64,000 bases of DNA from the NCBI GenBank assembly GCA_903864935.1, contig CAIPHT010000007.1:16293-80292 (forward strand), in the 5' to 3' direction. Every line of letters starts with the position of its first letter. The first letter of the stretch is position 1. Shown piece by piece: positions 8,630 through 44,686 of this stretch. The notes below the pieces were generated by a model, which ran no database searches, was not told the origin of the DNA, and was given only the letters and a program-made list of their open reading frames with translations. Position numbers and translations under genes: made by a program. The stretch comes from Candidatus Vogelbacteria bacterium. GTDB taxonomy: Bacteria > Patescibacteriota > Minisyncoccia > Phycocordibacterales > XYD1-FULL-46-19.

Positions 8630-8630
8630 A

Positions 8631-10967: not shown

Positions 10968-10990
10968 TTTAATAGGATATATTTAGAAAT

Positions 10991-11470: not shown

Positions 11471-11910
11471 TGCAATTCCAATTGCCACAATTTATTGAGG
11501 TCGAGGATACCATTTTTGGACCTCTCACCTTCAAGCAATTCCTCTACCTGGCCGGTGGCGCCGGTTTGGCCTTTATTTGTTATGTTTATCTGCCTATCTA
11601 CTTGGCAATCTTTCCCATTATTGGAGTTATTGCCTTATCAACCCTACTCGCTTTTTATAAATACAATGGACGAAACTTTGTTTATATTGTTGAGTCGGCC
11701 ACCAAATTCTTCTTCTCCAGCAAACTCTATTTATGGAAGCAGACTCTGGCAGGAGAAAGTAAAAGAACGGTAGTGGTGAAGGAAGAGAAGAGCGCGCCGG
11801 AGGGTATTAATCTCCCTCGCTTATCAGCCAGCAAATTAAAAGATCTCACTTGGAGCCTTGACGTCCAAAACAGTCCCGAAGCTGAGCAACAAAATAATTA
11901 TGGCACTTAA
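11470..11910 (+). CDS. PrgI/VirB3-like small membrane protein
   Basis: N-terminal motif EDTIFGPLTFKQFLYLAGGAGLAFICYV followed by two TM helices; matches the PrgI-family (VirB3 analogue) hallmark of an F/L-rich RQF[LI]YL box preceding the TM hairpin. Confidence 0.5.
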   Translation: MQFQLPQFIEVEDTIFGPLTFKQFLYLAGGAGLAFICYVYLPIYLAIFPIIGVIALSTLLAFYKYNGRNFVYIVESATKFFFSSKLYLWKQTLAGESKRTVVVKEEKSAPEGINLPRLSASKLKDLTWSLDVQNSPEAEQQNNYGT

Positions 11911-12577
11911 AGATTTTATCCCCAACAATAAATCCACCCAAGACTTCGTTCCAATCAAGGAGATTAAGAACGGAGTGGTGATTCTTAAGGATGGCTCTTT
12001 GCGAGCCGTGGTCATGGTCTCCTCGCTCAACTTTGGTCTCAAGTCAGACGACGAGAAAGTGGCAATCATCAGCGCCTTCCAAAACTTCCTTAACTCTATT
12101 GATTTCACTATTCAGATTTCCATTCAATCGAGACGCCTCAATATTGAGCCCTATCTCCAAACTCTAAGAGATCGCATGGCCGAGCAAACAAATGAGTTGC
12201 TCAAGGTCCAAATTAGAGAATACATAGAGTTTATTAGGTTCTATACTGATCATCAGAACGTCATGACCAAAACTTTCTTTGTCGTCGTTTCTTACGAACC
12301 AGCTTTAATTGCTGGGGGAGAGAGAGGTTTCCTCTCCAAGATTTTTAACAGCCAGAAAGCGAATTCCAAGAGCGCCATCATTAACGAATTCGACCAGAAT
12401 GTCGCGCAGCTAAATCAACGAACTAACGTTATCAAGAGCGGCCTAAGCCGGATGGGCTTAGTTAGCGCCGTGCTAGGAACCGAAGAGCTAATTGAGCTTT
12501 ATTTCAAATTATTCAATCCCGGGGAGAACGATGCCCCAGCCAGTAGCAATAATGGCTCAACCGCCGAAGCCAAATAA
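11900..12577 (+). CDS. VirB4/TrbE-family N-terminal domain protein (separate ORF)
   Basis: Motif VPIKEIKNGVVILKDGSLRAVVMVSSLNFGLKSDDEKVAIISAFQNFLNSIDFTIQISIQ matches the conserved N-terminal domain of Gram-positive-type VirB4 (PrgJ/TcpF-like). Alternative upstream ATG at 11858. Ends 5 nt before the ATPase ORF, in a different frame. Confidence 0.5.
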   Translation: MALKDFIPNNKSTQDFVPIKEIKNGVVILKDGSLRAVVMVSSLNFGLKSDDEKVAIISAFQNFLNSIDFTIQISIQSRRLNIEPYLQTLRDRMAEQTNELLKVQIREYIEFIRFYTDHQNVMTKTFFVVVSYEPALIAGGERGFLSKIFNSQKANSKSAIINEFDQNVAQLNQRTNVIKSGLSRMGLVSAVLGTEELIELYFKLFNPGENDAPASSNNGSTAEAK

Positions 12578-12582
12578 GTTAT

Positions 12583-14412
12583 ATGAATATCCCTTTTCTA
12601 AACCAAAAAAATAAGAACGAGGAGCTGATTCCCATCCTCCCGCAAGACATTTACCAAGTTGGAGTCCTAGAGCTTCAAGACATTATTGCTCCCTCGGCCC
12701 TACGCGTGACACCCAAGAATCTTAATTTGGGCGAGAAGATTGCACGTACTCTCTTTGTCATTTCTTATCCTCGCTTCTTGAGCGAAGAGTGGTTCTCACC
12801 CATTATCAACCTAGATAGTGTCTTCGACATTTCAATCTTTGTCCACCCGCTCGACACAACAACAACTCTCCGCGCCCTGCAAAAGAAGATTGCCGAGGTT
12901 GAGAGCCAAATTATGGTCCGCGAACAGAAGGGGATGGTCCGTGACCCAATGCTTGATACCGCCCAAGCTGATATCGAGAGCCTGCGCGATCAATTAATGC
13001 AGGCCACCGAGAAAATGTTCAGTGTCGGCCTCTATCTCACCCTCTACGGTGAGAGTGAAGAAGAATTAGATCATACCGAGGGGCAAATTAAATCCGTTCT
13101 CGATGCCAAGCTAATTTATCTTAAGACCGCCCTCTTCCAGCAAGAAGAAGGGTTCAAGAGTGTGGCCCCCTTCGCTACCGACTACCTCGAGGTCAATAAT
13201 CGACTTAATTCCACACCCCTTTCTAGTATCTTCCCCTTTGTCTCCTTTGACTTAACTTCTAATAAGGGAATTCTCTATGGGCGTAATATGCATAATTCTT
13301 CTCTTGTCATTTTCGACCGTTTCTCGCTAGAGAACTACAACTCGGTCATTTTTGCCAAATCGGGTTCGGGGAAATCTTTTGCCACTAAACTGGAGATTCT
13401 TCGTAGTCTCATGTTTGATATTGATGTTCTAGTTATTGACCCAGAAAGGGAGTACGAATTCTTGGCCGAAGCTGTCGGTGGACGATATTTCAACATTTCT
13501 CTCGCCTCTGAGCACCACATTAACCCCTTCGACCTGCCTTTTGCCCGCGAAGATGAGTCACCGGCCGACGTTCTTCGGTCTAACATCATCAATCTGGTCG
13601 GTCTCTTCCGTATTATGTTGGGCGGTCTTAGCCCTGAAGAAGACTCAATCCTCGACAATGCCATCTCCGAGACCTATGCGCTTAAAGATATCACGCCGGA
13701 TTCCGATTTTACTAACAAACCGGCGCCCCTCTTGTCAGATCTCGAATTAGTCTTGGCCGGCATGGAGGGGGGAGATTCGCTGGCCCAGAGATTACTTAAG
13801 TATACTCAAGGCACCTGGGCGGGCTTTCTCAACAAACCAACCAACGTTGATATCAACAAGAAATTCGTCGTTTTCTCTATCCGCGACATGGAGGACGAAC
13901 TTAAGCCAGTGGCCATGTATATCGTCATGCACCACATTTGGAACGCGATTAGACGCAATCTCAAGCGCCGCCTCCTGGTTGTCGACGAGGCTTGGGTTAT
14001 GATGAAGGATGACGATACCGCCTCTTTCCTCTTCTCCTTGGTGAAGAGAGGCCGTAAGTATTATCTGGGCGTCGCCACTATTACTCAAGACGTGGGAGAC
14101 TTCATTCGTTCACAATACGGTCTGCCCATCATCACCAACTCGTCTATTCAAATTCTCTTGAAACAGTCACCAGCCTCTATTGATGAGGTTCAGAAGACCT
14201 TTAATCTTACCGATGAAGAGAAATACTTCCTCTTGGAGTCACCGGTCGGGAATGGAATTTTTATTGCTGGTCTGAAGAGGGTAGAGATCAGGATTGAAGC
14301 CTCTTATACCGAGGAACAAATTGTTACCTCTGATCCTTCACAAATTCTCGCCATTAAGAAAGCCAAGTTAGATTTCGATACCGCCAAACAAACTGAGCAA
14401 ACCAATGCCTAA
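12583..14412 (+). CDS. virB4: VirB4/TrbE/TraC-family conjugative-type ATPase (C-terminal ATPase part)
   Basis: Walker A AKSGSGKS, Walker B LLVVDEAWVMM, ATITQDVGDF motif (VirB4 family); 609 aa. Confidence 0.85.
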   Translation: MNIPFLNQKNKNEELIPILPQDIYQVGVLELQDIIAPSALRVTPKNLNLGEKIARTLFVISYPRFLSEEWFSPIINLDSVFDISIFVHPLDTTTTLRALQKKIAEVESQIMVREQKGMVRDPMLDTAQADIESLRDQLMQATEKMFSVGLYLTLYGESEEELDHTEGQIKSVLDAKLIYLKTALFQQEEGFKSVAPFATDYLEVNNRLNSTPLSSIFPFVSFDLTSNKGILYGRNMHNSSLVIFDRFSLENYNSVIFAKSGSGKSFATKLEILRSLMFDIDVLVIDPEREYEFLAEAVGGRYFNISLASEHHINPFDLPFAREDESPADVLRSNIINLVGLFRIMLGGLSPEEDSILDNAISETYALKDITPDSDFTNKPAPLLSDLELVLAGMEGGDSLAQRLLKYTQGTWAGFLNKPTNVDINKKFVVFSIRDMEDELKPVAMYIVMHHIWNAIRRNLKRRLLVVDEAWVMMKDDDTASFLFSLVKRGRKYYLGVATITQDVGDFIRSQYGLPIITNSSIQILLKQSPASIDEVQKTFNLTDEEKYFLLESPVGNGIFIAGLKRVEIRIEASYTEEQIVTSDPSQILAIKKAKLDFDTAKQTEQTNA

Positions 14413-14803
14413 TGCTAAGATGAGGATAAGCCCGATTGTCGCCTCTTTTATGATTGGACTGGCCTTGGTTTATGATACCCTTAAATTTTTGTTGAGTTTC
14501 ATTTTGATGGGGTGGGTCGTCGCTATTTGGTCGTTCCTAACCTTCTGGTTCTGGTTTACTTACTTAGGAGTCAGTTTTATGAAGCCAGGCAAGATGAGAG
14601 GGGCGAAGATTGCGTCGCTTAGCGTCCCGGCAATAATTGGAATCTTACCCTTCATCTCCGCACTACCAGGCGAAACTCTGGGGGTAACAACGACAATAGG
14701 CATTGCTAGCGCCGAAGATCTGACCAAGGGGATTACTCCAGAGGTAGCCCAAGCTCTTGGCTCAGGATTAAAACAATTTAAGGGGGGAGGGATTGGCCAT
14801 TAA
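14405..14803 (+). CDS. small polytopic membrane protein (possible VirB2/VirB3-like)
   Basis: Three hydrophobic helices; overlaps the previous gene by 8 nt and the next gene by 11 nt. Confidence 0.45.
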   Translation: MPNAKMRISPIVASFMIGLALVYDTLKFLLSFILMGWVVAIWSFLTFWFWFTYLGVSFMKPGKMRGAKIASLSVPAIIGILPFISALPGETLGVTTTIGIASAEDLTKGITPEVAQALGSGLKQFKGGGIGH

Positions 14804-15848
14804 CTATTTAAGTATTATAATTAAAGAGAAAATGACTAAAAACTTTTTTTTAACTTTAATTCTAGCATTATTATTTATACCGACGACAATTCTGGCCGTC
14901 ACCGAGACAGGGGTTGGTAGTAATGTCTTGGCCACCATCACCCCCACTAACCCTCGGCCGGGGGATATCGTTAATATTTCCTTAAGCGGGTATGGCTTCG
15001 ATACGAATCAGAGTTATTTTAAATGGATGAGAGATGGTAAGGACGTTTTGTCTGGCAATGGACAGAGTCAATACTCCTTCCAACTTGGGCGCCTAGGGGT
15101 CGCCACAAAAATTGATGTGACAATTTTCTCGGACACCAGAGCTCTAGCGACAAAATCATTCTATTTTGAACCCGCCGACATTGATTTTGTTTGGCAAGCG
15201 GACACCTTTGTCCCGCCTTTTTACAAAGGAAAAGAGCGAGCCAGTGCCGGAGCGAATATTAAAATACTCGCCACCCCTTATCTTATTAATAATTTAGGTC
15301 AAGCAGAGAATAAATCTAACCTTAATTACTCTTGGTCACAAGATGGTAAGCCGCTCAACGATCGTTCAGGGCTGGGCAAATCAAACATAACTATTGCCAC
15401 TGGGCCAGACAAGAATCAGATTAAAATTGATTTAGCTGTTAGCACAATTGATAAAAGCCGTTCAACTAACAAATCTTTAATTATAAATTTAGATAAGCCA
15501 GAACTGGCTTTCTATGAGATTAAGCCTCTCGCGGGAACTAATTTTTTAAAACAAGTTATCGGGAGCTATGACCTCTATGATGATGAGGCAAGTTTCTTGG
15601 CTATCCCTTATTTCTGGCCCCGCAATCAAATAAATAACATCAATTATCTTTGGGCAATTAACGGCCTCCAGGCTTCTCCACAAAAAGATCCTTGGTCGCT
15701 AACCGTCCGCGAACCAAGCGGGGGAGCGGGGCAAAACGAGATAAATCTTCAGGTTAGTGATGCCCAAAATAGCTTAGGCCCTGTCAGCAACCACTTTAAT
15801 ATTAAATTTGGTAATAATTTGTTAAAATTCAATAATGCAAACCAATAA
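14793..15848 (+). CDS. secreted protein (signal peptide), T4SS-like operon
   Basis: Signal peptide MTKNFFLTLILALLFIPTTILAV; 351 aa, beta-rich composition. Confidence 0.5.
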   Translation: MAINYLSIIIKEKMTKNFFLTLILALLFIPTTILAVTETGVGSNVLATITPTNPRPGDIVNISLSGYGFDTNQSYFKWMRDGKDVLSGNGQSQYSFQLGRLGVATKIDVTIFSDTRALATKSFYFEPADIDFVWQADTFVPPFYKGKERASAGANIKILATPYLINNLGQAENKSNLNYSWSQDGKPLNDRSGLGKSNITIATGPDKNQIKIDLAVSTIDKSRSTNKSLIINLDKPELAFYEIKPLAGTNFLKQVIGSYDLYDDEASFLAIPYFWPRNQINNINYLWAINGLQASPQKDPWSLTVREPSGGAGQNEINLQVSDAQNSLGPVSNHFNIKFGNNLLKFNNANQ

Positions 15849-16218
15849 CTCAAACCTACTGGCCGCCACCGCTGGGTACACCCTGCTCGAACCCTCAGTG
15901 GTTCAACCTGACCCATCCAAGGCTTCAGGTACTCCAATCAGTCTTAGTCTCTACCTTAAGGGGGCCTATGTCACAATGTTTATTGTTGTCATTATTGGGG
16001 CGATTTTGGTTATGGTTTATTATGGTATTGGTTATATGATGTCGGATGTCGCGAGTTTCAAAGGAACAGCCAAAAGCCGTCTGACAAAAGTCTTTATTGG
16101 TATCGGTATCGCCATCCTCTCCTTTATCTTGCTCAACCAGATTAACCCGGACTTGGCTGGTAATCTAGGCAAAAATAGCAACAATATCATCCTCAACGGT
16201 CTTAACTCTTTATTTTAA
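15835..16218 (+). CDS. pilin-like small membrane protein (TrbC/VirB2-like topology)
   Basis: Long N-terminal leader followed by two hydrophobic helices (FIVVIIGAILVMVYYGIGYMM and VFIGIGIAILSFILL) separated by a short polar loop, ~120 aa; matches VirB2-type pilin architecture (inference). Confidence 0.4.
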   Translation: MQTNNSNLLAATAGYTLLEPSVVQPDPSKASGTPISLSLYLKGAYVTMFIVVIIGAILVMVYYGIGYMMSDVASFKGTAKSRLTKVFIGIGIAILSFILLNQINPDLAGNLGKNSNNIILNGLNSLF

Positions 16219-16221
16219 AAA

Positions 16222-17433
16222 ATGAAAAAAGCGCTAACTATAATTCTCCTAGTCCTTATCGCTGGTTCTTTAGGCACTCTTGGTTTTTTTATTTATAAGC
16301 AAAGTCAATCTACTACAAGAACTGTCACCAATACCCCAGTCTCGGAAGAGTCACCCTTCCCAATGGGGAGTAGTACTAACCCCGTTACCACCAACTATAA
16401 CTCCGGCAATAGTTCAACTAATTATCCTGAGGCTAATCAGCCCCTCGGCGTTCCTAACCAACCAGCCTTAAGCCAAATGAGTTTGGCGGGTATAACAGTT
16501 CTTTCAATTAACAAAAATCTCCAAACTTTTTTTACGGATAAAGAAACAGGTAATATATATTCTCTCGACGGCCAAAATAATCCCACGAGACTTAGTCTCG
16601 TGACCCTCCCCGGAGTTGAGGAATCTTATCTTGGTTATAGAAACAACAGTTTAGGTATTATCTTGCGACAAATCAAAGGGTTAAATATTGTAAATGAAAT
16701 CGGCCAAATTAAACTAGACAGCTCAGCCCCGACAACATTAAACCCCCACCTTTGGGATATCTCTCTCAGTTCTCTTGCCCTCTCTCCCAACAGCCAAAAA
16801 ATTTCTTTCTTAACCGAGATAACGGATAAAACCATACTTTATACGACAGATTGGTCCCTCCAAAAACCTAAGAAACTCTGGAGCTCACCACTCTCCAGTT
16901 GGAATATTTCATGGCCCAAAGATAGTTTAATTGTCATTACCTCTAAACCCTCTTATGATTACCCCGGTGTGGCTTATTTCCTAGATGCCCAAACCGGCAA
17001 AGAAACGAAGATATTAAACAACATTAATGGGCTAAATCTGTCTGTTTCGCCCAATGGAGACAAACTTATCTATACCAAGAGTTTACTTAGTGGCTTTAGC
17101 TTGTACTCTTATGATACAAAAGTAGAGGAAAGTCGTCTTCTCGATTTCAACACTCTTCCCGATAAATGTGTTTGGTCTGACAATGATACTTTATATTGTG
17201 CAGTACCAAAAAATATCCCAACTGGGCACTACCCCGATAATTGGTATCAAGGCAAAATTAGTTTCTCTGACAATGTTTGGAAAATTGATTTAAAACAAAA
17301 GACAACTACCATCGTCAGCACCCTAAAGGGGGATTATGATTTGTATAACCTAGTCATAAACAAACAAACAGGCTGGCTCTATGCCCTTAATCGAGGAGAT
17401 AATAAGCTCCAAGCCTTTAGTTTGAAGCCTTAG
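16222..17433 (+). CDS. secreted beta-propeller-like protein (TolB/PD40-like repeats)
   Basis: Signal peptide plus Ser/Thr/Asn-rich linker; C-terminal repeats such as LSVSPNGDKLIYTKS; last gene of the operon. 3' end overlaps yidC convergently by 17 nt. Confidence 0.5.
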   Translation: MKKALTIILLVLIAGSLGTLGFFIYKQSQSTTRTVTNTPVSEESPFPMGSSTNPVTTNYNSGNSSTNYPEANQPLGVPNQPALSQMSLAGITVLSINKNLQTFFTDKETGNIYSLDGQNNPTRLSLVTLPGVEESYLGYRNNSLGIILRQIKGLNIVNEIGQIKLDSSAPTTLNPHLWDISLSSLALSPNSQKISFLTEITDKTILYTTDWSLQKPKKLWSSPLSSWNISWPKDSLIVITSKPSYDYPGVAYFLDAQTGKETKILNNINGLNLSVSPNGDKLIYTKSLLSGFSLYSYDTKVEESRLLDFNTLPDKCVWSDNDTLYCAVPKNIPTGHYPDNWYQGKISFSDNVWKIDLKQKTTTIVSTLKGDYDLYNLVINKQTGWLYALNRGDNKLQAFSLKP

Positions 17434-18178
17434 GGGCCCTTAGGACCGCGTCCTGGTCCTTAATCTTCTTAATAACCACCACCTCATAGATGGCGGAGAA
17501 AACGTTACTGGTGACCCAATAAAGGGAGATGGCCGCGGGTAAAGTAAAGGCGATAACCGCCGTCATCACCGGCATAGCATAACGCATTTGGAAATCCATA
17601 CTCTTGGCTAAATCCTGGCCAAAAGAGACCTCTTTTTTGTCTGAAGACTTATTTTTTTCTCGCTTGGGTAGAGAAAGTGTAACCTGGAGATATTGAGTTA
17701 CCCCAGTTAAAAAGGCGAGAGCATAATTATGACTAACCGTTAATTTAACAAAACCCAAGAAAATTGTGTTGATATGATTGGGGATAGTAATAAAAGAGTA
17801 AACAAGGTTGATGTCAATAGTAAAACTCTGGCGAAAGACATAAAAAAGGGAAATAATAATAGGAATTTGGATAAGCAAAACCAAAAAGCTGCTAAAGGGG
17901 TTAATCTTCTCTTTTTTATATAATTCCATCGTCAGGCGAGACTGTTCGGGTAAATTATCTTTGTTTTGCTCTTTTATCGCCTTCAATTCACCCTCGACAG
18001 CCTTCATTTTTATTTGAGTCATTACCGAGGTCTTATAGAGAGGGAAAATGACAATTTTAACTAGAATAGTAAGAAGAATAATGGCCAAACCAAGATCTGC
18101 CCCAGGGAGAATCGCCGTGAGCCAAACCAGAAGATTGTAGAGGGGGATAAAAACAATTATTTTGAAAAAATTAATCAT
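17417..18178 (-). CDS. yidC: membrane protein insertase YidC (short form)
   Basis: Motifs ILLTILVKIVIFPL and MQIKMKAVEGELKAIKEQ, five TM segments, conserved position downstream of rnpA. Confidence 0.85.
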   Translation of the reverse strand: MINFFKIIVFIPLYNLLVWLTAILPGADLGLAIILLTILVKIVIFPLYKTSVMTQIKMKAVEGELKAIKEQNKDNLPEQSRLTMELYKKEKINPFSSFLVLLIQIPIIISLFYVFRQSFTIDINLVYSFITIPNHINTIFLGFVKLTVSHNYALAFLTGVTQYLQVTLSLPKREKNKSSDKKEVSFGQDLAKSMDFQMRYAMPVMTAVIAFTLPAAISLYWVTSNVFSAIYEVVVIKKIKDQDAVLRAPKASN

Positions 18179-18195
18179 ATTTTGCTATTCTAACA

Positions 18196-18552
18196 CTATT
18201 TTAAAATTTTAGCTGTTCTAATTAAAGCCAAGACCTCTTCCTCAAACTGTTTGAATTCAAGTCTAGAAAGATCCTCTTTTACTTGGATGATAATATCTGA
18301 ATTATTTACCACTTCGGGCCAGATTTTTTCTAAAATAGCGTGGAGACGCCTCTTGATCAAATGGCGACGGGCCGAGAGGGGAACAACCTTATTCCCAATA
18401 ACCACCGCCACCCTCGGACTTTGGCCATAATTCTCCTCTGTGGATAACCTGTTATGAACTCGAATATTAAGACTAGGGGACGAGAAAACCCTGTTTTGTT
18501 TCAAAACAAGGGGTAAAAGCTCTTTATTTATACGGTATTTAACCGGAAGCAT
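18196..18552 (-). CDS. rnpA: ribonuclease P protein component
   Basis: RNR-like basic motif ARRHLIKRRL; 118 aa; immediately downstream of rpmH. Confidence 0.8.
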   Translation of the reverse strand: MLPVKYRINKELLPLVLKQNRVFSSPSLNIRVHNRLSTEENYGQSPRVAVVIGNKVVPLSARRHLIKRRLHAILEKIWPEVVNNSDIIIQVKEDLSRLEFKQFEEEVLALIRTAKILK

Positions 18553-18555
18553 TAA

Positions 18556-18690
18556 TTAGACAGCCAATTTATGGCGACCTTTGAGACGGCGTCGGGCCAA
18601 AACCTTAGCCCCGGTTGGGGACTTAGTTCGAGCCAAAAAACCATGGGTAGTGGCTCGTTTCTTCTTTTTAGGATTATACGTAAAAGACAT
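18556..18690 (-). CDS. rpmH: 50S ribosomal protein L34
   Basis: Not in the ORF track (44 aa). Minus-strand translation is [44 protein letters not shown], the canonical L34 sequence. Sits 3 nt upstream of rnpA. Confidence 0.85.
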
Positions 18691-18820
18691 GGGGATAGTA
18701 TACCAGAAAAAAAGCTTTTAGCAATATCCACAAGTAATCCACCACATATAAACAGAATAGGTAAGATTGCTAGTTTTTCCACAAGGCCTATAATTGAAGC
18801 AAGTAAGATAATTATTTTAT
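18691..18820. promoter_or_regulatory. dnaA upstream region with DnaA-box-like 9-mers
   Basis: aTATCCACA at 18725..18733 and TTTTCCACA at ~18776..18784 (consensus TTATCCACA); divergent rpmH/dnaA promoter region. Confidence 0.4.
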
Positions 18821-20197
18821 ATGGAAGGAATTTTAGACAACAAGAAACTCTGGGAAAATGCCCTTAATGAGATCGAGTTGTCTATCTCTAAAGCTAACTT
18901 CGGCACCTGGTTTAAAAACACCCACATTATTAAATGTGATGACGGAATTATTCAATTAGCTGTTCCCAATGCTTTTGTTCGTGACTGGTTAGCTAATAAG
19001 TATCACAAGTTCATCTTGAAAGCTCTCCGCGATATGGAAGATGGGGTAAGATCTATCGAATACGTAATTAGCCGCCCCGACGACCAATCATCTAGTAATA
19101 AGGCTAAGATTGGTGTCAACAAAGACAACCTTCTTAGTAATGACCTTGGTTTAAAGGATCTCTATATTAACAAAGAGAGTAATCTTAATCCTAAATATGA
19201 TTTTAGCACCTTCATTGTTGGATCCTTTAATGATGTGGCCTATGCCGCTGGTCAAGCGGTAATTAAGAATCCAGGGACTGTTCATAATCCACTCTTTATT
19301 TATGGTGGAACAGGTTTGGGTAAGACCCACCTTCTCCAAGCAATTGGCAACCAGATTAAAAAGAATAATCCTAATAAATCAGTTTATTATATTAGTTCGG
19401 AGAACTTCATTGTGGAACTTATTAGTAATATTCAGAACAATAAAGGTAATAGCTTTAAGGAAAAGTTCCGCAAATATGACCTTCTTATTATTGATGATGT
19501 CCAATTTTTCTCTAACAAAGAGCATTCTCAAGAAGAACTCTTCCATTTATTCAATCATTATTACGATAACAATAAACAAATTATCTTTTCTTCAGATAAA
19601 CCCCCTAAATTTATTCCTAACCTTGAGGAGAGACTGCGTTCACGCTTCGAAGGGGGGATTATTATTGATATTTCCAAGCCTGATTATGAATCACGCTTAG
19701 CTATCCTAAGAAATAAGAATAAAACCTTAGAAATAAAGATTCCTGATGAGGTTCTCGAGTATCTTGCTTCTGTTATTCAAGACAGTATTAGAGAACTAGA
19801 GGGTTCTCTTAACTCTATTATTCTCCAATCTCAGGCTAAAAATAAAGAGATTACCTTACAAGAAGTGAAGGGGATTATTAAGAATAATATCAAACCTCAG
19901 AAAACTATTTCTATTAAAGACGTTATGCATGTTGTGGCTGATTACTATAATATTGAAGAGGCAATTCTCTATGAGAAAACTCGTCGTAAAGAGGTGGTTA
20001 AACCACGACAAATTATTATGTATATATTAAGAGAAGACTTTAATACTTCTTACCCTTATATTGGCCAAAAATTAGGTGGGAGAGACCACACAACAGTTAT
20101 TCACGCTTACGAAAAAATAAAAGAAGAAGTAAAAAATAATTCAGCCCTTGTCCAAGAGTTAGAACAAATTAGATCACTTCTTTACGCTAATAATTAA
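18821..20197 (+). CDS. dnaA: chromosomal replication initiator protein DnaA
   Basis: AAA+ Walker A GGTGLGKTHLLQAIGN, sensor motifs, C-terminal DNA-binding domain (TVIHAYEKI); 458 aa. Confidence 0.95.
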   Translation: MEGILDNKKLWENALNEIELSISKANFGTWFKNTHIIKCDDGIIQLAVPNAFVRDWLANKYHKFILKALRDMEDGVRSIEYVISRPDDQSSSNKAKIGVNKDNLLSNDLGLKDLYINKESNLNPKYDFSTFIVGSFNDVAYAAGQAVIKNPGTVHNPLFIYGGTGLGKTHLLQAIGNQIKKNNPNKSVYYISSENFIVELISNIQNNKGNSFKEKFRKYDLLIIDDVQFFSNKEHSQEELFHLFNHYYDNNKQIIFSSDKPPKFIPNLEERLRSRFEGGIIIDISKPDYESRLAILRNKNKTLEIKIPDEVLEYLASVIQDSIRELEGSLNSIILQSQAKNKEITLQEVKGIIKNNIKPQKTISIKDVMHVVADYYNIEEAILYEKTRRKEVVKPRQIIMYILREDFNTSYPYIGQKLGGRDHTTVIHAYEKIKEEVKNNSALVQELEQIRSLLYANN

Positions 20198-20432: not shown

Positions 20433-21536
20433 ATGAAGCTAGAATGTCTAAAAGATAAATTTAAAGATGCTATTATCTTAGCCGAGAAGATAAGTGGGCG
20501 TAACTTAACCTTACCAATTCTAAGTACTATCCTGCTTGAGACTAAGAATAAGAATTTAATAATCAGAGCGACAAACTTAGAAGTGGGGATAGAAATAGAG
20601 ATTCCGGCCAAGATTGAAACTAGTGGTTTAGTGGCGGTTAATGCGAGTATTCTCTTGAATTATCTTAATAATCTTACTAAAGAAGAAAAAATAACCCTTG
20701 AGCTAGATAATAATAATCTTAAATTAAGTACTGAATCAACCCAAACGATTATTAAGAGTCTGGCGCCTGAAGATTTTCCTATTATTCCTAAAATTGCTCA
20801 GGAAGGTGGTTTTGAGATTAAGGCAGTTGATTTTGTCTCAGGCTTACAAGCTGTCTCTTTTGCAAGTGCAGTATCTGATATAAAACCAGAGATATCTAGC
20901 GTTTATCTTCATAATGAGAATCAAGATTTGATTTTTGTTGCCACCGACTCCTTTAGATTAGCCGAGAAAACAATAAATAATATCCCTAATTTAAGTAATC
21001 TTAATATTATTATTCCCTTTAAGAACGTGAACGAATTGATTAGAGTTCTAACTAGTTTGGGGACGAACCAAGTTGTTGTTAGTTATAATAAGAATCAATT
21101 AGCTATCCAGACAGACAATCTCTATCTTACTTTAAGGGTAATTGATGGTAATTATCCCGATTATAAACAAATCATCCCAACCAAATTTAATACTGAATTA
21201 AATATCAAAAAAGAAGATTTTGTTGGGTTACTTAAACTCTCAACAATTTTCTCTGATCGCTTTAATCAAATTGATATAACCTTTAAACCAGATTCTAATA
21301 CACTAGAAGTTTTATCTCATAACCAAGAAGTAGGGGAGAATAAATCGTCTTTAGTAATTAAAATTAAGGGCGAACCATTAATTATTAGCTTTAATGCTAA
21401 GTATTTACTAGATTGCCTTAGTTCCTTTAGTGATAATGTAATTAATCTACGTTTTACTGAGACAAGTCGACCTCTAATGATAGAGGGGACAACGGATAAC
21501 TCTTTCCATTATCTTGTGATGCCGATCAATAAGTAA
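20433..21536 (+). CDS. dnaN: DNA polymerase III subunit beta (sliding clamp)
   Basis: Three-domain clamp of 367 aa; N-terminus MKLECLKDKFKDAI...LTLPILSTILLE; conserved position after dnaA. Confidence 0.9.
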   Translation: MKLECLKDKFKDAIILAEKISGRNLTLPILSTILLETKNKNLIIRATNLEVGIEIEIPAKIETSGLVAVNASILLNYLNNLTKEEKITLELDNNNLKLSTESTQTIIKSLAPEDFPIIPKIAQEGGFEIKAVDFVSGLQAVSFASAVSDIKPEISSVYLHNENQDLIFVATDSFRLAEKTINNIPNLSNLNIIIPFKNVNELIRVLTSLGTNQVVVSYNKNQLAIQTDNLYLTLRVIDGNYPDYKQIIPTKFNTELNIKKEDFVGLLKLSTIFSDRFNQIDITFKPDSNTLEVLSHNQEVGENKSSLVIKIKGEPLIISFNAKYLLDCLSSFSDNVINLRFTETSRPLMIEGTTDNSFHYLVMPINK

Positions 21537-32795: not shown

Positions 32796-32840
32796 GAGCC
32801 CCTGGGAGAGAGTCACTCTCCCAGGGGCTTTTTCTTTTGT
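32796..32840 (+). terminator. rho-independent terminator
   Basis: GCCCCTGGGAGAG-AGTCACT-CTCTCCCAGGGGC followed by TTTTTCTTTTG. Confidence 0.65.
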
Positions 32841-32878
32841 CCTCATTTTGTTACGCTTATCGTTGTAGAATAAATAAT

Positions 32879-33367
32879 ATGAAAGAGACAAAAATTATTT
32901 CTAAATCACTCGAAGATACTTATAATGTTGCCAAGCTTTTTCTTTCTAACCTAAAACCTAAAAGTTTACCCCGTGGCGGAGCTTTACGGGGCTCCCAAGC
33001 TGCTGTTGTTTTACTCGAAGGGGACTTAGGAGGAGGTAAGACCACGTTTACTCAAGCCTTGGCCCGCGAACTTGGGGTGAAGAATTATCTTACGAGTCCG
33101 ACCTTTGTTTTAATGAAAAGCTACAAGATTTCTCCCGAAGTCACTGAGAGGCTTCGCCTCTCAGTTAAGAATCTTATTCATATTGATGCTTATCGCTTAA
33201 ATTCTGGCGCTGATTTGTTGAATCTTGGCTGGGCTGAGCTCGTCGCTAATCCCGCCCACTTAATTGTGTTAGAATGGCCAGAGAAGGTGGCCGACCTCTT
33301 CGACGGTTTGGAGCACAAAATCAAGTTCAAATTTATTGATGAACAAAAAAGAGAAATAATTTTATAA
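32879..33367 (+). CDS. tsaE: tRNA threonylcarbamoyladenosine biosynthesis protein TsaE
   Basis: P-loop LEGDLGGGKTTFTQALAREL, SPTFVLMKSY, HIDAYRL; start set at MKETKI (ATG 32879). Confidence 0.8.
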   Translation: MKETKIISKSLEDTYNVAKLFLSNLKPKSLPRGGALRGSQAAVVLLEGDLGGGKTTFTQALARELGVKNYLTSPTFVLMKSYKISPEVTERLRLSVKNLIHIDAYRLNSGADLLNLGWAELVANPAHLIVLEWPEKVADLFDGLEHKIKFKFIDEQKREIIL

Positions 33368-34708: not shown

Positions 34709-37210
34709 ATGGCCAAAAAGAATTATAAAACCAAAATCGTCCTCATTGACGCCCATGCTATCTTGCATCGGGCTTATCATGCTTTGCCGGATTTCTCTTC
34801 GAGTAAGGGTGAGCCGACGGGCGGGCTCTACGGCTTGGCCTCGATGATGCTTCGGATTATTGCTGACCTTAAGCCAGATTATATTTTTGCTTGTTATGAC
34901 CGCGCTGAGCCAACCTTCCGTAAGCAAGTTTATGATGAATATAAGGCGGGGCGCGCTAAGGCTGAGCCAGAGTTGGTGGCGCAGATTATTCGTTCGCGCG
35001 ATATCTTCACCGCGCTTCATATACCAATCTACGATCTGGCCGGTTTTGAGGCGGATGATATTATTGGGACGATAGTTGAGAAATTGTCAAAAGGAGTTCG
35101 AGGAGAGACCTCGGGCTCACTCGAGGACTCACCTCGAACGCGACAGGCCTCCTCGGCTCAGATAATAATTGCCTCGGGTGATATGGACACCCTCCAGCTG
35201 GTTGATGACGATAGGGTTGTTGTCTTCACACTTAAGAAAGGTCTCAATGATACTGTCGTCTATGATGAGAAGATGGTGCGCGAGCGTTATGGCTTCGAAC
35301 CCAAATTCCTGATTGATTATAAAGGTTTAAGAGGTGACCCGTCTGATAATATTATTGGTGTGGAGGGTATCGGAGAGAAAACGGCGACAACTTTGATTCA
35401 AGAGTTTGGCACAATTGAAGATATTTATAAACAGATTAAAAAGGATGAGCAGGTTTTGCTTGATCGAGGTGTTAAAGCTCGAATTCTGGAGATTTTAAAG
35501 AATAGCGAAGAAGAGGCGATTTTTTCTAAAACCTTGGCAACGATCAGGCGTGATGCTGGTATTGATTTTAAATTACCTAAGGAGACTTGGGCCGAGACTT
35601 TTGAGACGACCAAGGCCGAGGGCTTATTCAATGATTTGGAGTTTAGGACTTTGATTGGGAGGTTGAAGAAACTTGAGATCGGGCCTCGCCCCACGGGCGA
35701 AGTTGGACTTCAGGGCTCATCGAAGTCCAACTTCTCACGACCGGGCTCGGCCGAGGGAGGTGAGCCGGCTGTGGGAAGTCCGACTTCAAGTGAGCCCGAA
35801 GTCGTACTTCACTCACCGGCTGAGGAACTTGAAATTAAACAACTTGCCATCGCCCTCTGGCTTATCAATTCAGACACTACCAACCCCAAGCTTGAAGATA
35901 TTTTCGAATACACCCGAACCGAAGACTTGGCCAAGGCCAAAGAAAAATTGTTGGCTGACTTAGAGAAGCTTGGCCTAACTAAAATTTACCAAGAAGTGGA
36001 ACTGCCTCTCATCCCAATACTTGAAGAGGCTCAGGCACGGGGGATTAAGGTGGATAAGAAATTATTGGCAGATTTGTCTGTTGATTATCATGCCAAGCTC
36101 AAAGATTTGGAGAAAAAGATTTATGAGCTGGCTGGCTCTGAATTCAACATTAATTCGCCCAAGCAACTAGGAGAGATTCTTTTTACCAAGCTTAATTTGT
36201 CGGTGAAGGGTCTTAAGAAGACAGCGGGAGGCAGTCAATCTACTCGCGAATCGGAGATTGCCAAGCTGAAGGATGTCCACCCAATTATCAACGAGATTCT
36301 GGCCTATCGCGAATTGCAGAAGTTGCTCTCAACTTATATTGATAATCTCCCTAAGCTCTTAGACGAGGACGATATTTTGCACCCGACCCTCAACCAGACG
36401 GGTACCACGACCGGGCGTATGTCCTCAACTAACCCTAACGTGCAGAATATCCCGACGCGGGGTGAGCAAGGGGCAGCGATTAGGACAGCCTTCGTCGCGC
36501 GCGAGGGGTATGAATTAATGGCTTTTGACTATTCTCAGATTGAGCTGCGAGTTTTGGCTGCCCTCTCACAAGATCCAGAATTAATTAAGATTTTTAACGA
36601 AGGTAAGGACATCCACACTTCGGTTGCGTCACGCGTTTTTGGAGTTATTGAGGGAGATGTGACTAAAGAGATGAGGCGACGGGCAAAGGTGATTAATTTT
36701 GGCATTATCTATGGGATGGGGGTTAATGCGCTTAAGGCCAATCTTGGGACAACTCGTGATGAAGCCCAAGAATTCATGGATAATTATTTTGCCTCTTTCC
36801 CCACTATCAAGAAATACTTCGAATTGGTGATTGAGGGAGCCAGAGACAGGGGATACACCGAGACTCTCTTTGGTCGTCGTCGTTATTTGCCGGCTCTTCA
36901 CTCTCAATTGCCTCAAATTAAGGCCAGCGCTGAGCGTATGGCGATGAATGCCCCACTTCAGGGGACGGCAGCCGATATTATTAAGCTGGCCATGATTCGG
37001 GCTGATAAAGATATCAAGGAGGCTGGTTTGTCAGACAAAGCCTTCTTGTTGCTCCAGATCCACGATGAACTTATTTTTGAAGTAAAAGAGGGACTTAGTG
37101 CTAAAGTTATGCCTTTAATTAAGAAATCCATGGAGGAGGTGATTAAGATGAATGTTCCCCTAGAGGTCTCATCGGCTCGTGGTCCTCGCTGGGGGGAACT
37201 TGAGAAATAA
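34709..37210 (+). CDS. polA: DNA polymerase I (5'-3' exonuclease plus polymerase; degenerate 3'-5' exo region)
   Basis: FEN domain (IVLIDAHAILHRAYHALPD), motif A DYSQIELR, motif B RRRAKVINFGIIYGMG, motif C LLQIHDELIFE. 833 aa. Low-complexity GC-rich linker regions carry palindromic insertions. Confidence 0.95.
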   Translation: MAKKNYKTKIVLIDAHAILHRAYHALPDFSSSKGEPTGGLYGLASMMLRIIADLKPDYIFACYDRAEPTFRKQVYDEYKAGRAKAEPELVAQIIRSRDIFTALHIPIYDLAGFEADDIIGTIVEKLSKGVRGETSGSLEDSPRTRQASSAQIIIASGDMDTLQLVDDDRVVVFTLKKGLNDTVVYDEKMVRERYGFEPKFLIDYKGLRGDPSDNIIGVEGIGEKTATTLIQEFGTIEDIYKQIKKDEQVLLDRGVKARILEILKNSEEEAIFSKTLATIRRDAGIDFKLPKETWAETFETTKAEGLFNDLEFRTLIGRLKKLEIGPRPTGEVGLQGSSKSNFSRPGSAEGGEPAVGSPTSSEPEVVLHSPAEELEIKQLAIALWLINSDTTNPKLEDIFEYTRTEDLAKAKEKLLADLEKLGLTKIYQEVELPLIPILEEAQARGIKVDKKLLADLSVDYHAKLKDLEKKIYELAGSEFNINSPKQLGEILFTKLNLSVKGLKKTAGGSQSTRESEIAKLKDVHPIINEILAYRELQKLLSTYIDNLPKLLDEDDILHPTLNQTGTTTGRMSSTNPNVQNIPTRGEQGAAIRTAFVAREGYELMAFDYSQIELRVLAALSQDPELIKIFNEGKDIHTSVASRVFGVIEGDVTKEMRRRAKVINFGIIYGMGVNALKANLGTTRDEAQEFMDNYFASFPTIKKYFELVIEGARDRGYTETLFGRRRYLPALHSQLPQIKASAERMAMNAPLQGTAADIIKLAMIRADKDIKEAGLSDKAFLLLQIHDELIFEVKEGLSAKVMPLIKKSMEEVIKMNVPLEVSSARGPRWGELEK

Positions 37211-40339: not shown

Positions 40340-41101
40340 ATGTCCACTAAACTCAAAATTTATTCTTGGAATGTGAATGGCATACGCGCGGCGGTGAAGA
40401 ACGGTTTTGTGGAGTGGTTGAAGGAGGAGAAGCCAGATATTGTGGGTCTCCAAGAAATTAAAATTAATGACGTAGCCCGAGCCAAAGAGGAATTCGATTT
40501 TGCCGGTTACAATGAGTATTGGCATCATGCCAAGCGCCCGGGCTATTCAGGGACAGCTGTTCTCTCAAAGATTGAACCCATTTCTGTTAGTCGTGGTGAT
40601 TGGGATGACGAAGGGCGGGTGATAACCCTTGAGTTTGAGAAGTTCTATTTTGTTAATTGTTATTTTCCTAACTCGCAACACGAGTTAGCTCGGCTTGATT
40701 TCAAAGAAGAATTTAATAAGAAGTGGCTGGCTTATATTAAGAAGTTAGAGGAGAAGAAACCGGTCGTCACTTGTGGCGACTTCAATGTGGCCCATCAAGA
40801 GATAGACTTGGCTCGACCTAAGGATAATGTTGGCAACCCTGGCTTTACCAATGAAGAGCGAGCATGGGCCGATAAATTCCTCCAACATGGCCTCATTGAT
40901 ACCTATCGCTTGATAAATGGCGACAAAGTGCAGTATTCTTGGTGGAGTTATCGGATGGCGGCCCGTGCGCGGAATATTGGTTGGCGTATTGATTATTTTC
41001 TCGTGAGCGAGAAATTAAAGAAAAATATTAAGGATGCTTTTATTCATGATACCCAGATGGGCTCCGACCATTGCCCGGTCGGAATTGTTCTTGAGATTTA
41101 A
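40340..41101 (+). CDS. xth: exodeoxyribonuclease III (AP endonuclease)
   Basis: IYSWNVNGIRA, LQEIK, GDFNVAH, and C-terminal SDHCPV motifs. Confidence 0.95.
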   Translation: MSTKLKIYSWNVNGIRAAVKNGFVEWLKEEKPDIVGLQEIKINDVARAKEEFDFAGYNEYWHHAKRPGYSGTAVLSKIEPISVSRGDWDDEGRVITLEFEKFYFVNCYFPNSQHELARLDFKEEFNKKWLAYIKKLEEKKPVVTCGDFNVAHQEIDLARPKDNVGNPGFTNEERAWADKFLQHGLIDTYRLINGDKVQYSWWSYRMAARARNIGWRIDYFLVSEKLKKNIKDAFIHDTQMGSDHCPVGIVLEI

Positions 41102-41102
41102 C

Positions 41103-41135
41103 TTTACTACTTACTACTTATTACTTACTACTACC
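41103..41135. repeat. heptanucleotide tandem repeat (TTACTAC)n, about 4.5 units
   Basis: TTTACTACTTACTACTTATTACTTACTACTAC between xth and holA. Confidence 0.6.
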
Positions 41136-41139
41136 CAAA

Positions 41140-41990: not shown

Positions 41991-42063
41991 CCGCTCATAG
42001 CTCAGCTGGTAGAGCAGCTCCCTTTTAAGGAGACGGTCGCAGGTTCGATTCCTGCTGAGCGGA
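41991..42063 (+). tRNA. tRNA-Lys (anticodon TTT)
   Basis: Cloverleaf: acceptor CCGCTCA/TGAGCGG, D-arm GCTCAGCTGGTAGAGC, anticodon loop CTTTTAA, T-arm GCAGGTTCGATTCCTGC. Close to canonical bacterial tRNA-Lys(UUU). Confidence 0.85.
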
Positions 42064-42070
42064 CAAAATA

Positions 42071-42097
42071 AAGAACCGCGTAGGCGGTTTTTATTTT
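42071..42097 (+). terminator. rho-independent terminator after tRNA-Lys
   Basis: AACCGC-GTAG-GCGGTT followed by TTTATTTT. Confidence 0.6.
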
Positions 42098-42279
42098 GTC
42101 CGCGAAAGCAAGCAAACTGCTTTGCTTGCGAGCAGGAATCGAACAGCGGAGCGATGTTTCTTCACCAGAAGAAACTAGCGAGCTGGTGCCCAGACAAGAC
42201 CGAGCGACGGCGAGGGCTTAGTCGCGGGAGATTCCTTTGTGGCTAGAAAAAAAGTTAATGGACTGGTATTGTAACTCTA

Positions 42280-42969: not shown

Positions 42970-43185
42970 ATGCGTAGCATTGTAAATATTTCATTACCTC
43001 CTAGTTTGCTTAAGGAGGTCAACAAAGAGGTCAAAGATGGCGGGTTTGCTTCTAAGAGTGAATTTTTCCGTCAGCTTTTGCGATCTTGGCGCGAGGCCAA
43101 ACTCTTTTTAGAGTTAGAAAAAAGTCACAAAGAAGTCCTGGCTGGCAAGGCTAAGGTGCTAAAGTCTCTTAAAGATCTTCGTTAA
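42970..43185 (+). CDS. ribbon-helix-helix (CopG/ParD-like) antitoxin
   Basis: SLPPSLLKEVNKEVKDGGFASKSEFFRQLLRSW is RHH-like; 71 aa, 4 nt upstream of the toxin gene. Confidence 0.65.
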   Translation: MRSIVNISLPPSLLKEVNKEVKDGGFASKSEFFRQLLRSWREAKLFLELEKSHKEVLAGKAKVLKSLKDLR

Positions 43186-43189
43186 AAAC

Positions 43190-43447
43190 ATGAAACTTTT
43201 TTACACTAGCAAATTTGCTCGGGAGTATAAAAAGTTGAATACAGAAATCCAGGATCTGGTGGATGGGAAAATAGAGATATTCAGGGAATCCTCGTTTTCT
43301 TCCAAGCTAAGAACACACAAGCTTCACGGTTCGCTGGCTAATTATTATGCTTTTTCTGTTACCTCAAAAATAAGGATTATTTTTCGTTATGGTGAAAAAG
43401 GGGAGGCTTATCTTCATTCCGTTGGTGATCACGGAATTTATGAATAA
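43190..43447 (+). CDS. RelE/ParE-family type II toxin
   Basis: 85 aa; KLHGSLANYYAFSVTSKIRIIFRYGEKGEAYLHSVGDH matches the RelE/ParE C-terminal core. Confidence 0.7.
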   Translation: MKLFYTSKFAREYKKLNTEIQDLVDGKIEIFRESSFSSKLRTHKLHGSLANYYAFSVTSKIRIIFRYGEKGEAYLHSVGDHGIYE

Positions 43448-43767: not shown

Positions 43768-44673
43768 TTACTTTTGGCAACTGGCACAAAAGTGAGTACC
43801 CCTGCCGGCGTGGCGGATCTTTTGGATCGGGCGACCACAGACCTTGCAAGGCTCGCCTTCGCGACCATAGACATTAAGATGGGGGACGAAGCCGCCCCTG
43901 GTGCCATCGCTCCGGCGGTAATTGCGAGAGGAAGTGCCTTTCTTTTGGATTGAGAGCTTGAGAACTTTAATAATATTGTCTCGCAAATTTTTTATCTCCG
44001 CTGGCTTGAGGGTTGAAACTTTTCTCGTTGGGAGAAATTTAGACAAGAAGCAGGCTTCATCGGCATAGATATTCCCAATCCCAGCAATCAGGGTTTGATC
44101 AAGAAGTATTTGTTTGATTGTTCTATTTTTATATTTCTTAAATATCTCAGCAAGAAGGCTGGGAGTGAAGATGGGGGAGAGCGGTTCGGGGCCGATATTC
44201 TCGACGAGTTTGCCTATTTGCTTATCATCCGCTAGTCTTACCCAACCAAATTTGCGCAGGTCATTGAAGTAGAGTTTAGACTTATCAGTGAATTCAAAAA
44301 TGAGGCGAGTGTATTTGGAGGGTTGCTTCTCGAGCATTTGGTCATCGGGATGTCCTCCAAGGACCGCTTGCCCGAGGACAGTCCTTGAACTGCCCCTAAG
44401 GACTGTCCTCGGGCAAGCTGGAACAAAAATTAATTGCCCTGTCATCTTGAGATGCACCGCGAGCGCCAAGTCACCCTCAAAATCAATAAAAAGCATTTTG
44501 GCCCTGCGCCTTACTTCTTTTATTTTTTTCCCTTTTATTTGTTTGAGAAATTCGTTGGGTGAGAAAGGACCCACCGTTTTAGCCCAAAGAACCTGAGTGT
44601 CTTTAATCTCCAGACCAATCAGGACTTTATTTAGTTCGCGTTTTAGAGTCTCAACTTCTGGTAGTTCGGGCAT
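43768..44673 (-). CDS. mutM: formamidopyrimidine-DNA glycosylase (Fpg/MutM)
   Basis: MPELPEVE catalytic N-terminus, H2TH, C-terminal zinc finger CKVCGRPIQ...CASCQ. Contains an in-frame palindromic insertion (RTVL repeat). Confidence 0.9.
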   Translation of the reverse strand: MPELPEVETLKRELNKVLIGLEIKDTQVLWAKTVGPFSPNEFLKQIKGKKIKEVRRRAKMLFIDFEGDLALAVHLKMTGQLIFVPACPRTVLRGSSRTVLGQAVLGGHPDDQMLEKQPSKYTRLIFEFTDKSKLYFNDLRKFGWVRLADDKQIGKLVENIGPEPLSPIFTPSLLAEIFKKYKNRTIKQILLDQTLIAGIGNIYADEACFLSKFLPTRKVSTLKPAEIKNLRDNIIKVLKLSIQKKGTSSRNYRRSDGTRGGFVPHLNVYGREGEPCKVCGRPIQKIRHAGRGTHFCASCQK

Positions 44674-44686
44674 AAAACCCAATATA

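Follow-up and report, generated by a model that had tools for sequence, protein, structure and literature searches.

The var1 gene of yeast mitochondria carries G+C-rich clusters, which are short, optional, in-frame palindromes in an AT-richer genome that spread to empty alleles by gene conversion. We describe similar optional, GC-rich, in-frame palindromes, from a different domain of life and different in sequence, in the genes fpg and polA of a Candidatus Vogelbacteria bacterium. The sequence examined is a 64-kb stretch of contig CAIPHT010000007.1 (positions 16,293 to 80,292), hereafter the window, and all coordinates without a genome name are window positions. The central element is a perfect palindrome at 44366-44418, inside the gene for formamidopyrimidine-DNA glycosylase (Fpg/MutM).

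Among bacterial systems, the Rickettsia palindromic elements (RPEs) are in-frame palindromic DNA segments of conserved genes that are translated, tolerated at permissive positions, and patchily distributed (PMC2229807, PMC10969869). RPEs are 105-150 bp long, occur in dozens of copies in unrelated genes and in spacers, and encode a conserved peptide in each family. The fpg element is likewise palindromic and in frame, without stops, in a conserved gene. In contrast to the RPEs, its core is 36-37 bp, copies are seen only in fpg and polA, neither peptide nor frame is conserved, and the arms are perfectly paired. The other marks of RPEs and of MITEs (miniature transposable elements with inverted repeats), namely, target-site duplications, TA ends, and a size of ~100-150 bp, were not found; the sequences flanking the elements are inverted rather than direct repeats.

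A second described system is the hairpin made by template switching, in which adjacent sequence is copied as its reverse complement. A single switch event can yield a perfect stem, compensatory changes of several bases, a longer stem, or an inverted loop (PMC8794818, PMC7202029, PMC13100816). The fpg palindrome resembles such hairpins, since part of one arm is the reverse complement of a native flank, and symmetric insertions and multi-base compensation are seen between relatives; stem extension and loop inversion are visible as well. Template switching has, however, been described for RNA genes, promoters, and reporter hotspots, not for the upkeep of an in-frame palindrome family in coding genes.

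Three further systems share single features with the elements described here. In REPs and REPINs, two inverted short hairpin units and a short spacer build a larger hairpin (PMC3116915, PMC3337134). REPINs are extragenic, present in tens to hundreds of copies, and accompanied by a RAYT gene, whereas all copies found here are intragenic and low in number in the sample, their arms lack GTAG, and no Y1 transposase is found in the 28 window open reading frames (ORFs) scanned with Pfam or in the gene tables of syntenic loci. PARCELs are coding repeats with DNA dyad symmetry, a punctate distribution, and suspected horizontal spread (PMC2996958), but in PARCELs 25-residue units that share a conserved amphipathic motif are repeated in tandem, in surface proteins whose function is unknown, and the elements described here are single inserts in housekeeping enzymes. 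DNA uptake sequences (DUS/USS) number hundreds to thousands of motif copies per genome; no such abundance is seen here, and the arms vary between copies. Literature searches found no description of such elements in bacteria of the Candidate Phyla Radiation (CPR).

We favour, by a slight balance of probability, a small family of 36-37-bp palindromic repeats that is tolerated in frame in permissive loops, kept and extended by template switching, and reshuffled by recombination. The element is regarded as neutral or selfish. If this is true, the locus is a natural example of short perfect hairpins arising, persisting, and growing inside essential coding genes without a transposase, and compensatory stem changes need not imply a functional RNA. 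The 'selfish palindromes in proteins' of Rickettsia would then extend, as a much smaller element, to the streamlined CPR genomes. For annotators and structure predictors, odd duplicated peptides in CPR enzymes could be byproducts of events at the DNA level, and the fpg site would be a handy marker of recombination among uncultured lineages.

The fpg palindrome in its gene and in orthologs

A repeat search placed perfect 21-nt arms at 44366-44386 (GCTTGCCCGAGGACAGTCCTT) and 44398-44418 (AAGGACTGTCCTCGGGCAAGC), which are 100% complementary and enclose an 11-nt spacer at 44387-44397, giving a full palindrome of 53 bases. The initial annotation, made from the sequence alone, had described a 16-mer, CCCGAGGACAGTCCTT, an 11-nt spacer, and AAGGACTGTCCTCGGG; these are present, and the true arms are longer. 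No other perfect inverted repeat of the window with a loop of 3-20 nt has arms as long. When the window was shuffled 100 times with its dinucleotides preserved, the longest arm with such a loop averaged 10.1 nt and reached at most 13, against the 21 observed. The predicted fold of the palindrome as single-stranded DNA has an energy of -30.9 kcal/mol (z = -10.0 against 200 shuffles), and its G+C content is 63%, compared with ~44% in the surroundings.

The palindrome consists of a core and outer stem segments, as follows. The 37-nt core at 44374-44410, which is common to the family described below, has a 13-nt arm (GAGGACAGTCCTT), the 11-nt loop, and a second 13-nt arm (AAGGACTGTCCTC), and each core arm comes close to being a palindrome of its own (AGGAC-N-GTCCT). 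On the coding strand, the outermost 8 nt of the 5' arm (GCTTGCCC, 44411-44418, minus strand, codons A-C-P) are the reverse complement of the flank at 44366-44373. That flank (GGGCAAGC, minus strand, codons G-Q-A) consists of Fpg codons and now serves as the outer segment of the 3' arm on the coding strand. It lies in a 12-mer, GGGCAAGCGGTC, that encodes G-Q-A-V both in the window and in L089, a relative without an insert (relatives are designated by L numbers). Since the 12-mer is native, the 5' segment GCTTGCCC would be a reverse-complement copy of the native flank. Just downstream, at 44352-44364 (minus strand), the codons for V-L-G-G-H contain a small native inverted repeat, GTCCT-TGG-AGGAC, predicted to form a 5-bp hairpin; it has both half-sites of the palindrome arms.

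The minus-strand ORF 43768-44682 contains the palindrome. Its true start codon is the ATG at 44673, and fpg (43768-44673, minus strand) encodes 301 residues beginning MPELPEVE. The three Fpg domains PF01149, PF06831, and PF06827 all score above cut-off, and solved MutM structures match at E = 1e-57. The Fpg hallmarks are present, namely, Pro-Glu (PELPEVE) after Met, the H2TH domain, and a C-terminal CxxC...CxxC zinc finger, and the hallmark residues are invariant across 35 orthologs. Among the matches listed, the closest proteins belong to uncultured Parcubacteria/Paceibacteria-type CPR bacteria. Two shadow ORFs, 44288-44596 (plus strand) and 44238-44426 (minus strand), cross the palindrome; with three of the six frames open there, gene callers could mis-annotate the segment.

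The translation given by the initial annotation, ...VPACPRTVLRGSSRTVLGQAVLGGHP..., is correct. The peptide RTVL is duplicated in it because each arm contains AGGAC-N-GTCCT, the two copies being 24 nt (8 codons) apart. That the segment is an insertion relative to canonical Fpg, as had been claimed, is borne out by alignment with MutM structures and with some close orthologs: the HMMER alignment breaks at the insert, with 36 query residues (87-122) set against 8 (84-91) of Bacillus MutM. In an AlphaFold2 model made with the ortholog alignment, pLDDT is <50 for residues 89-100, which lie between the strands 79-84 and 104-107. The model is consistent with a tolerated surface loop and gives a designed structure no support. 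This Fpg is otherwise canonical, and we propose that it tolerates the element as a disordered loop of ~13-18 residues.

Alignment of the 35 orthologs shows that the flanks GQLI[FY] and GGHP are invariant and that the segment between them is hypervariable. Six sequences have a short form, YK[DN]IAGGHP, and others have a plain loop that is 5 residues longer, FxPKxGxxIxGGHP. Many orthologs carry inserts of 6-30 residues, several of which resemble that of the window (PRTVLRGSSRAVLGG, RTVLLGDLSRTVLGG, and PRTTLRGSSRVVLGG).

The DNA of eleven close orthologs was compared; the more distant L002 and L004 have 52-54% identity and come from a scan of genome contigs in which the Fpg loci listed were all remote (57% identity or less) and also served as negative background. 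Pairing at the fpg site is complete in the window (21/21), L087 (26/26), L002 (13/13), and L004 (13/13), and L200 pairs at 12/13; L081 has 16 pairs over 18-nt arms, L083 has 17, L084 has 16, and L090 has 15. The perfect 26-nt arms of L087 enclose the same 11-nt loop as in the window, and each arm differs from its window counterpart by three adjacent, compensated differences. The L081 element is CCCCCAAGGACAGTCCTT-aggggcagttc-AAGGGCTGTCCTCGGGGG, and L083, L084, and L090 combine the arm type of L081 and the window with loops of 14-15 nt. In L200, the site reads AAGGACTCGCCTC-gagaggccgttca-GAGGCAAGTCCTT. L002 and L004 have, in the same Fpg loop, AAGGTTCGACCTT-aaaacccgcc-AAGGTCGAACCTT, and L004 carries a second fpg element 12 codons downstream, AAGGACTGTTCTT-ggcaggttct-AAGGACAGTCCTT. 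The site of L082 is empty.

At one codon position, then, orthologs vary in arms, loops, lengths, and reading frames, and the palindromic ones stay paired. The arm AAGGAC-N-GTCCTT is read as RTVL in the window but as KDSP in L200 (at the same site) and in L004 (at the second site); a changed loop length shifts the frame of one arm, and the pairing persists. The element behaves as a unit of DNA and not of peptide, with base pairing conserved and peptide and frame not. These comparisons bear on the proposal that the duplicated RTVL was selected at the protein level to lengthen the Fpg beta-hairpin, the palindrome being incidental. A basic insert in a DNA-binding enzyme, at a site that accepts inserts in many lineages, would fit such an adaptation. 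We nevertheless hold it highly unlikely, given that the peptide, its length, and its frame change between orthologs while the pairing stays, that selection on a peptide cannot produce 21/21 complementary bases, that the confidence of the model is low, and that many relatives lack the insert.

Chimeric artefacts can create palindromes, and the initial annotation had named an assembly artefact as one outcome that re-sequencing might reveal. The probability of an assembly or sequencing artefact is next to nil. The exact protein is found on four NCBI and ENA contigs, the insert lies in frame in the interior of a long contig, and homologous palindromes occur at the same site in independent JGI, Logan, ENA, and NCBI assemblies. 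The annotation had also allowed that orthologs might share the segment. This proved partly true, as many orthologs are palindromic at the same site, and the comparison of these sequences points to an old, polymorphic, and evolving feature of the site, not a recent insertion limited to this genome.

A different recurrent insert, GGPARNA[MT]HSVAGG, stands directly before GGHP in the L085 fpg (10001-10888) and in protein P0024. In L085, its DNA looks like the flanking ATTGCAGGCGG copied first in inverted and then in direct orientation, the classic pattern of a template switch.

A family shared with polA

Of the four family copies in the window, one is that in fpg and the other three, revealed by a hairpin scan, are GC-rich in-frame palindromes in polA (elements 1-3). 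Element 1 (35096-35139), GTTCGAGGAGAGACCTCG-ggctcact-CGAGGACTCACCTCGAAC, has 16/18 positions paired; it is present in the window and in L085 and absent from six other orthologs. Element 2 (35697-35736), GAAGTTGGACTTC-agggctcatc-GAAGTCCAACTTC, lies in the linker between the 5'-nuclease and polymerase domains. Element 3 (35775-35810), GAAGTCCGACTTC-aagtgagccc-GAAGTCGTACTTC, has its loop in the orientation opposite to that of element 2. At the position of element 2, the L081 polA has AAGGTCCGACCTT-gggcacactt-AAGGACGGACCTT and the L085 polA has AAGGTTCGACCTT-gggctcactt-AAGGTCAAACCTT.

The elements have a common plan, two 13-nt arms around a loop of 10-11 nt, for a total of 36-37 bp. Family arms take the form AAGG-N5-CCTT or GAAGT-N3-ACTTC and are nearly self-complementary. 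The loops carry related motifs (AAGTGAGCCC, AAGTGTGCCC, AGAACCTGCC, and GAACTGCCCCT) and are found in both orientations relative to the coding strand. Some arms are identical between sites: AAGGACAGTCCTT is shared by the L081 fpg and the second fpg element of L004, and AAGGTCGAACCTT by the L004 fpg and the L085 polA.

In an alignment of ten members (A4), 96.9% of the cells pair and 10/13 pairs have changed on both sides. None of 500 shuffles reached the observed values, and registers slid along the alignment pair at <=53%. A covariance model, R1, was built from A4. It scores the fpg core at 48.3 bits and gives 33.3 bits to polA element 1 (35100-35135), which was outside the training set. Other untrained members score 38.0 (L083), 31.6 (L090), 34.4 and 22.9 (the L085 polA orthologs), and 24.5 bits (L200). 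Ordinary terminators and generic hairpins reach ~20 bits with R1, against ~24-50 bits for the family. The claim of the initial annotation that the fpg and polA palindromes belong to one family is upheld by the score of the untrained polA element; the likeness it saw between the fpg spacer and that of a polA element is real but modest (AGGGGCAGTTC and AGGGCTCATC, coding strands). Judged from these sequences, a small, clade-specific family appears to occupy five or more fpg and polA sites in Paceibacteria-type CPR bacteria, in either orientation.

The shared plan weighs on the proposal that each palindrome arose locally and de novo by template switching from nearby sequence, the likeness among them being a convergence set by seed sequences and open frames. 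In its favour, parts of the stems copy native flanks, the native V-L-G-G-H codons of fpg (GTCCTTGGAGGAC) already hold both arm half-sites, and the L085 fpg insert resembles an inverted and a direct copy of its flank. Moreover, unrelated in-frame palindromes in tsaE and at another polA site suggest a general mutational tendency. Yet independent switches would give arbitrary lengths, whereas an identical 13-nt arm, one size plan, and related loops recur across sites, genes, and genomes, and R1 separates the family from generic hairpins. Despite the half-sites in GTCCTTGGAGGAC, the identical arms and size plan at other sites favour a shared source, and we regard independent local origin as unlikely.

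The search for further copies covered ~260 kb with R1 unfiltered (the 64-kb window, eight close loci, and six more distant Paceibacteria-type loci) and 1.41 Mb of Patescibacteria and other loci with default filters. No member outside fpg and polA was found in either set. This suggests, but does not prove, a restriction to two genes, the sampled DNA being essentially one syntenic region. In the window, the fpg arm occurs nowhere else, which answers the proposal of the initial annotation to look for more copies of its 16-mer; matches to arm or core beyond the two arms are at chance level, and the arm motif AGGACNGTCCT is found in the 64 kb only in the two arms, no more often than chance expects. 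Across the loci compared, the loop 11-mer turned up in two fpg genes, those of L081 and L087, and otherwise only in one chance match. The 19-mer CCTTAGGGGCAGTTCAAGG, which combines loop and inner stem, has one match in the JGI metagenomes, the contig with the L087 fpg, which argues against a dispersed, high-copy element with this loop.

Viral contigs scanned for AAGG-N5-CCTT ... AAGG-N5-CCTT gave about as many matches as chance, none of them a member of the family; the scan also showed a few 13-bp palindromes directly repeated in phages, which are unrelated. Rfam 15 contains no matching family, the only hits being sub-threshold generic miRNA-precursor hairpin models at ~29 bits against cut-offs of 60-100. 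Protein searches with concatenated peptides found nothing in other families, although they had no power for matches of 12-14 residues, and the one that included the window's own peptide missed that too.

These results also bear on a classical non-autonomous transposon (MITE, RPE-like, or REPIN-like) mobilised in trans by a transposase encoded elsewhere in the genome. Such an element could account for the terminal inverted repeats with an asymmetric centre, and for the occurrence in both orientations, at several sites, and with patchy presence. The two inverted self-complementary arms recall REP doublets (PMC3116915), and RPEs are likewise in frame in conserved genes (PMC2229807, PMC10969869). 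On the other hand, no copy was found outside fpg and polA or in the intergenic DNA scanned, no target-site duplications accompany the elements, and neither a transposase nor a RAYT gene is present among the Pfam-scanned ORFs or in the syntenic gene tables. The loop and inner stem 19-mer is unique in the JGI metagenomes, and 36 bp is far below known MITE sizes. We consider a classical transposon quite improbable. The initial annotation had spoken of a palindromic mobile element family, of which the family stands; transposon-type mobility, with its dispersed copies, target-site duplications, and transposase, finds no support in the DNA scanned.

Two other candidates were rejected. A site-specific recombinase target, of the loxP/FRT type with 13-bp inverted repeats and a spacer, does not fit the variable spacer of 10-15 nt, and no recombinase gene is nearby. 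No link was found to the diversity-generating retroelement that likely stands beside polA in L085, where a reverse transcriptase gene (RVT_1) adjoining a bAvd gene lies at 17485-18876, between polA and tsaE, in this relative only.

In the L082 polA, the ortholog of window element 3 (16662-16730) has a 33-nt extra segment in its loop, which suggests a nested insertion or an expansion within the element. In-frame polymorphic palindromes of other types occur at another polA site in L081 and L085 and in the GGPARNAMHSVAGG insert of the L085 fpg. Many further indels between the compared genomes are not palindromic.

Upkeep of the pairing and exchange among lineages

Comparison between relatives points to the way in which the arms are kept complementary. 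Compared with L081, the window carries an additional GCTTGC in the 5' arm (coding strand) and its complement, GCAAGC, in the 3' arm. The outer stem of L081, L083, and L084 contains CCCCC, whose partner is the GGGGG of the conserved Gly-Gly codons. A further multi-base event separates the window from L087, namely, their three adjacent compensated differences. We infer that it is template switching, and not structural selection, that keeps the arms perfect. Switching between the arms during replication (quasi-palindrome correction) would copy a change or insertion from one arm to the other in one event, and it may also have extended the stem into flanking native codons. It would explain, in addition, why the loops are found in both orientations.

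Homologous recombination would shuffle alleles with, without, or with other versions of the element among lineages. The clearest case is the pair L087 and L089. Their fpg genes differ at 5/249 of the first nucleotides (~97-98% identity) and are similarly close just downstream of a patch of ~120 nt, comprising the palindrome and the next ~15 codons, over which they cannot be aligned. In a neighbour-joining tree with the insert masked, the short allele appears in six places and RTVL-type elements in at least five, and sisters usually differ. Over the first 300 alignment columns, the window backbone is closest to L082, whose site is empty (81-93% nucleotide identity), whereas for its element the match is to L081 and L087, with backbone identities of only 46-79% over those columns. 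Movement of fpg loop alleles by recombination is shown by sequence for the one ortholog pair and probably applies more widely.

The family may have reached its different sites by transposition in trans, by ectopic template switching, or by gene conversion.

Several observations weigh against our proposal. The members are in only two genes, both of repair or replication, which random insertion or origin does not predict. Template switching alone does not predict the uniform plan of 13, 10 or 11, and 13 nt, nor the self-complementary arms. The window, L081, and L087 have one and the same 11-nt loop at Fpg protein identities of only 63-81%, which calls for either recombination, as seen for L087, or a constraint on the loop. 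Finally, the presence of a palindrome at one codon position down to ~52% identity could mean structural selection.

Under such selection, the palindrome would be a functional nucleic-acid structure, that is, an mRNA hairpin, a DNA cruciform, or paired 13-bp arms bound by a dimeric protein. Roles common to fpg and polA are possible in regulation or processing, or as a recombination or DNA-uptake signal concentrated in genome-maintenance genes; in Neisseria and the Pasteurellaceae, uptake sequences are known to favour such genes (PMC2397512, PMC2346458). One fpg codon position retains a palindrome across deeply diverged lineages, with compensatory changes, and the loop is identical in three lineages with flanks only ~70% identical. 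The dyad symmetry of the arm survives a change of type at an orthologous polA site (GAAGT..ACTTC and AAGGT..ACCTT). Every copy was found in a repair or replication gene, and recombination tracts surround the element. However, close relatives manage without it, L082 having an empty site and six lineages a short allele. Loops in both orientations relative to transcription and replication direction make a loop-specific RNA function unlikely, and ortholog loops differ in sequence and length (10-15 nt). Four copies per 64 kb are far below uptake-signal densities, and there is no Rfam match. On balance, a selected structure appears doubtful to us.

A self-maintaining element specialised for conserved sites in genome-maintenance genes, its arms repaired and lengthened by template switching and its spread homing-like, through recombination tracts that are centred on it and convert empty alleles, or arms that serve as sites for recombination or uptake factors, would explain the restriction to repair genes, the mosaic patch of L087 and L089, and the long persistence at one codon position. 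We rate this version as decidedly doubtful.

Neighbouring features of the window

The neighbourhood of fpg is a repair and replication cluster with polA, a uracil-DNA glycosylase gene, an exonuclease III-like gene, holA, ruvA, ruvB, and ruvC. Between a SpoU methylase gene and fpg, at 42970-43447, lie a ribbon-helix-helix (CopG-type) gene and then a gene with a weak match to a YafQ-like toxin (23.8 bits, where the Pfam cut-off is 30). They probably form a type II toxin-antitoxin pair, which is missing from most syntenic relatives. A window-specific insert of 42 nt (41098-41139), made of TACTACTTAC-like short tandem repeats, lies at the 3' end of the exonuclease III-like gene and in the spacer that precedes holA; L082 and L085 lack it. 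In the 41991-42103 region, a tRNA gene (68.9 bits) is directly followed by a hairpin with a 15-bp stem (42059-42103) that is conserved in L082.

The tsaE gene (32837-33367) contains an in-frame polymorphic palindrome of a different type, ACTGAGAGGC-ttc-GCCTCTCAGT (33141-33167), which was found in the hairpin scan and encodes TERLRLS. It is shared with L084, decayed in L081, and absent from L082. A second window-specific insert in tsaE, LPRGGALRGSQ, lies near 32966-33000. The tsaE-side spacers of L087 (14135-14196) and L089 (9906-9967) hold an identical, AT-rich (19% G+C), near-perfect palindrome with 24-bp arms whose sequence has no relation to the fpg/polA family.

The replication origin probably lies within the window: dnaA (18821-20197) and dnaN (20433-21536) adjoin a stretch of 29% G+C at 20-22 kb, the cumulative GC-skew minimum is nearby, and the GC skew turns at ~16-20 kb. 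At 5326-17433, the gene table of an identical contig lists genes with domains like those of conjugation and type IV secretion systems (PrgI, TraC-like, VirB4/TraG-type ATPases, and a lysozyme-domain protein).

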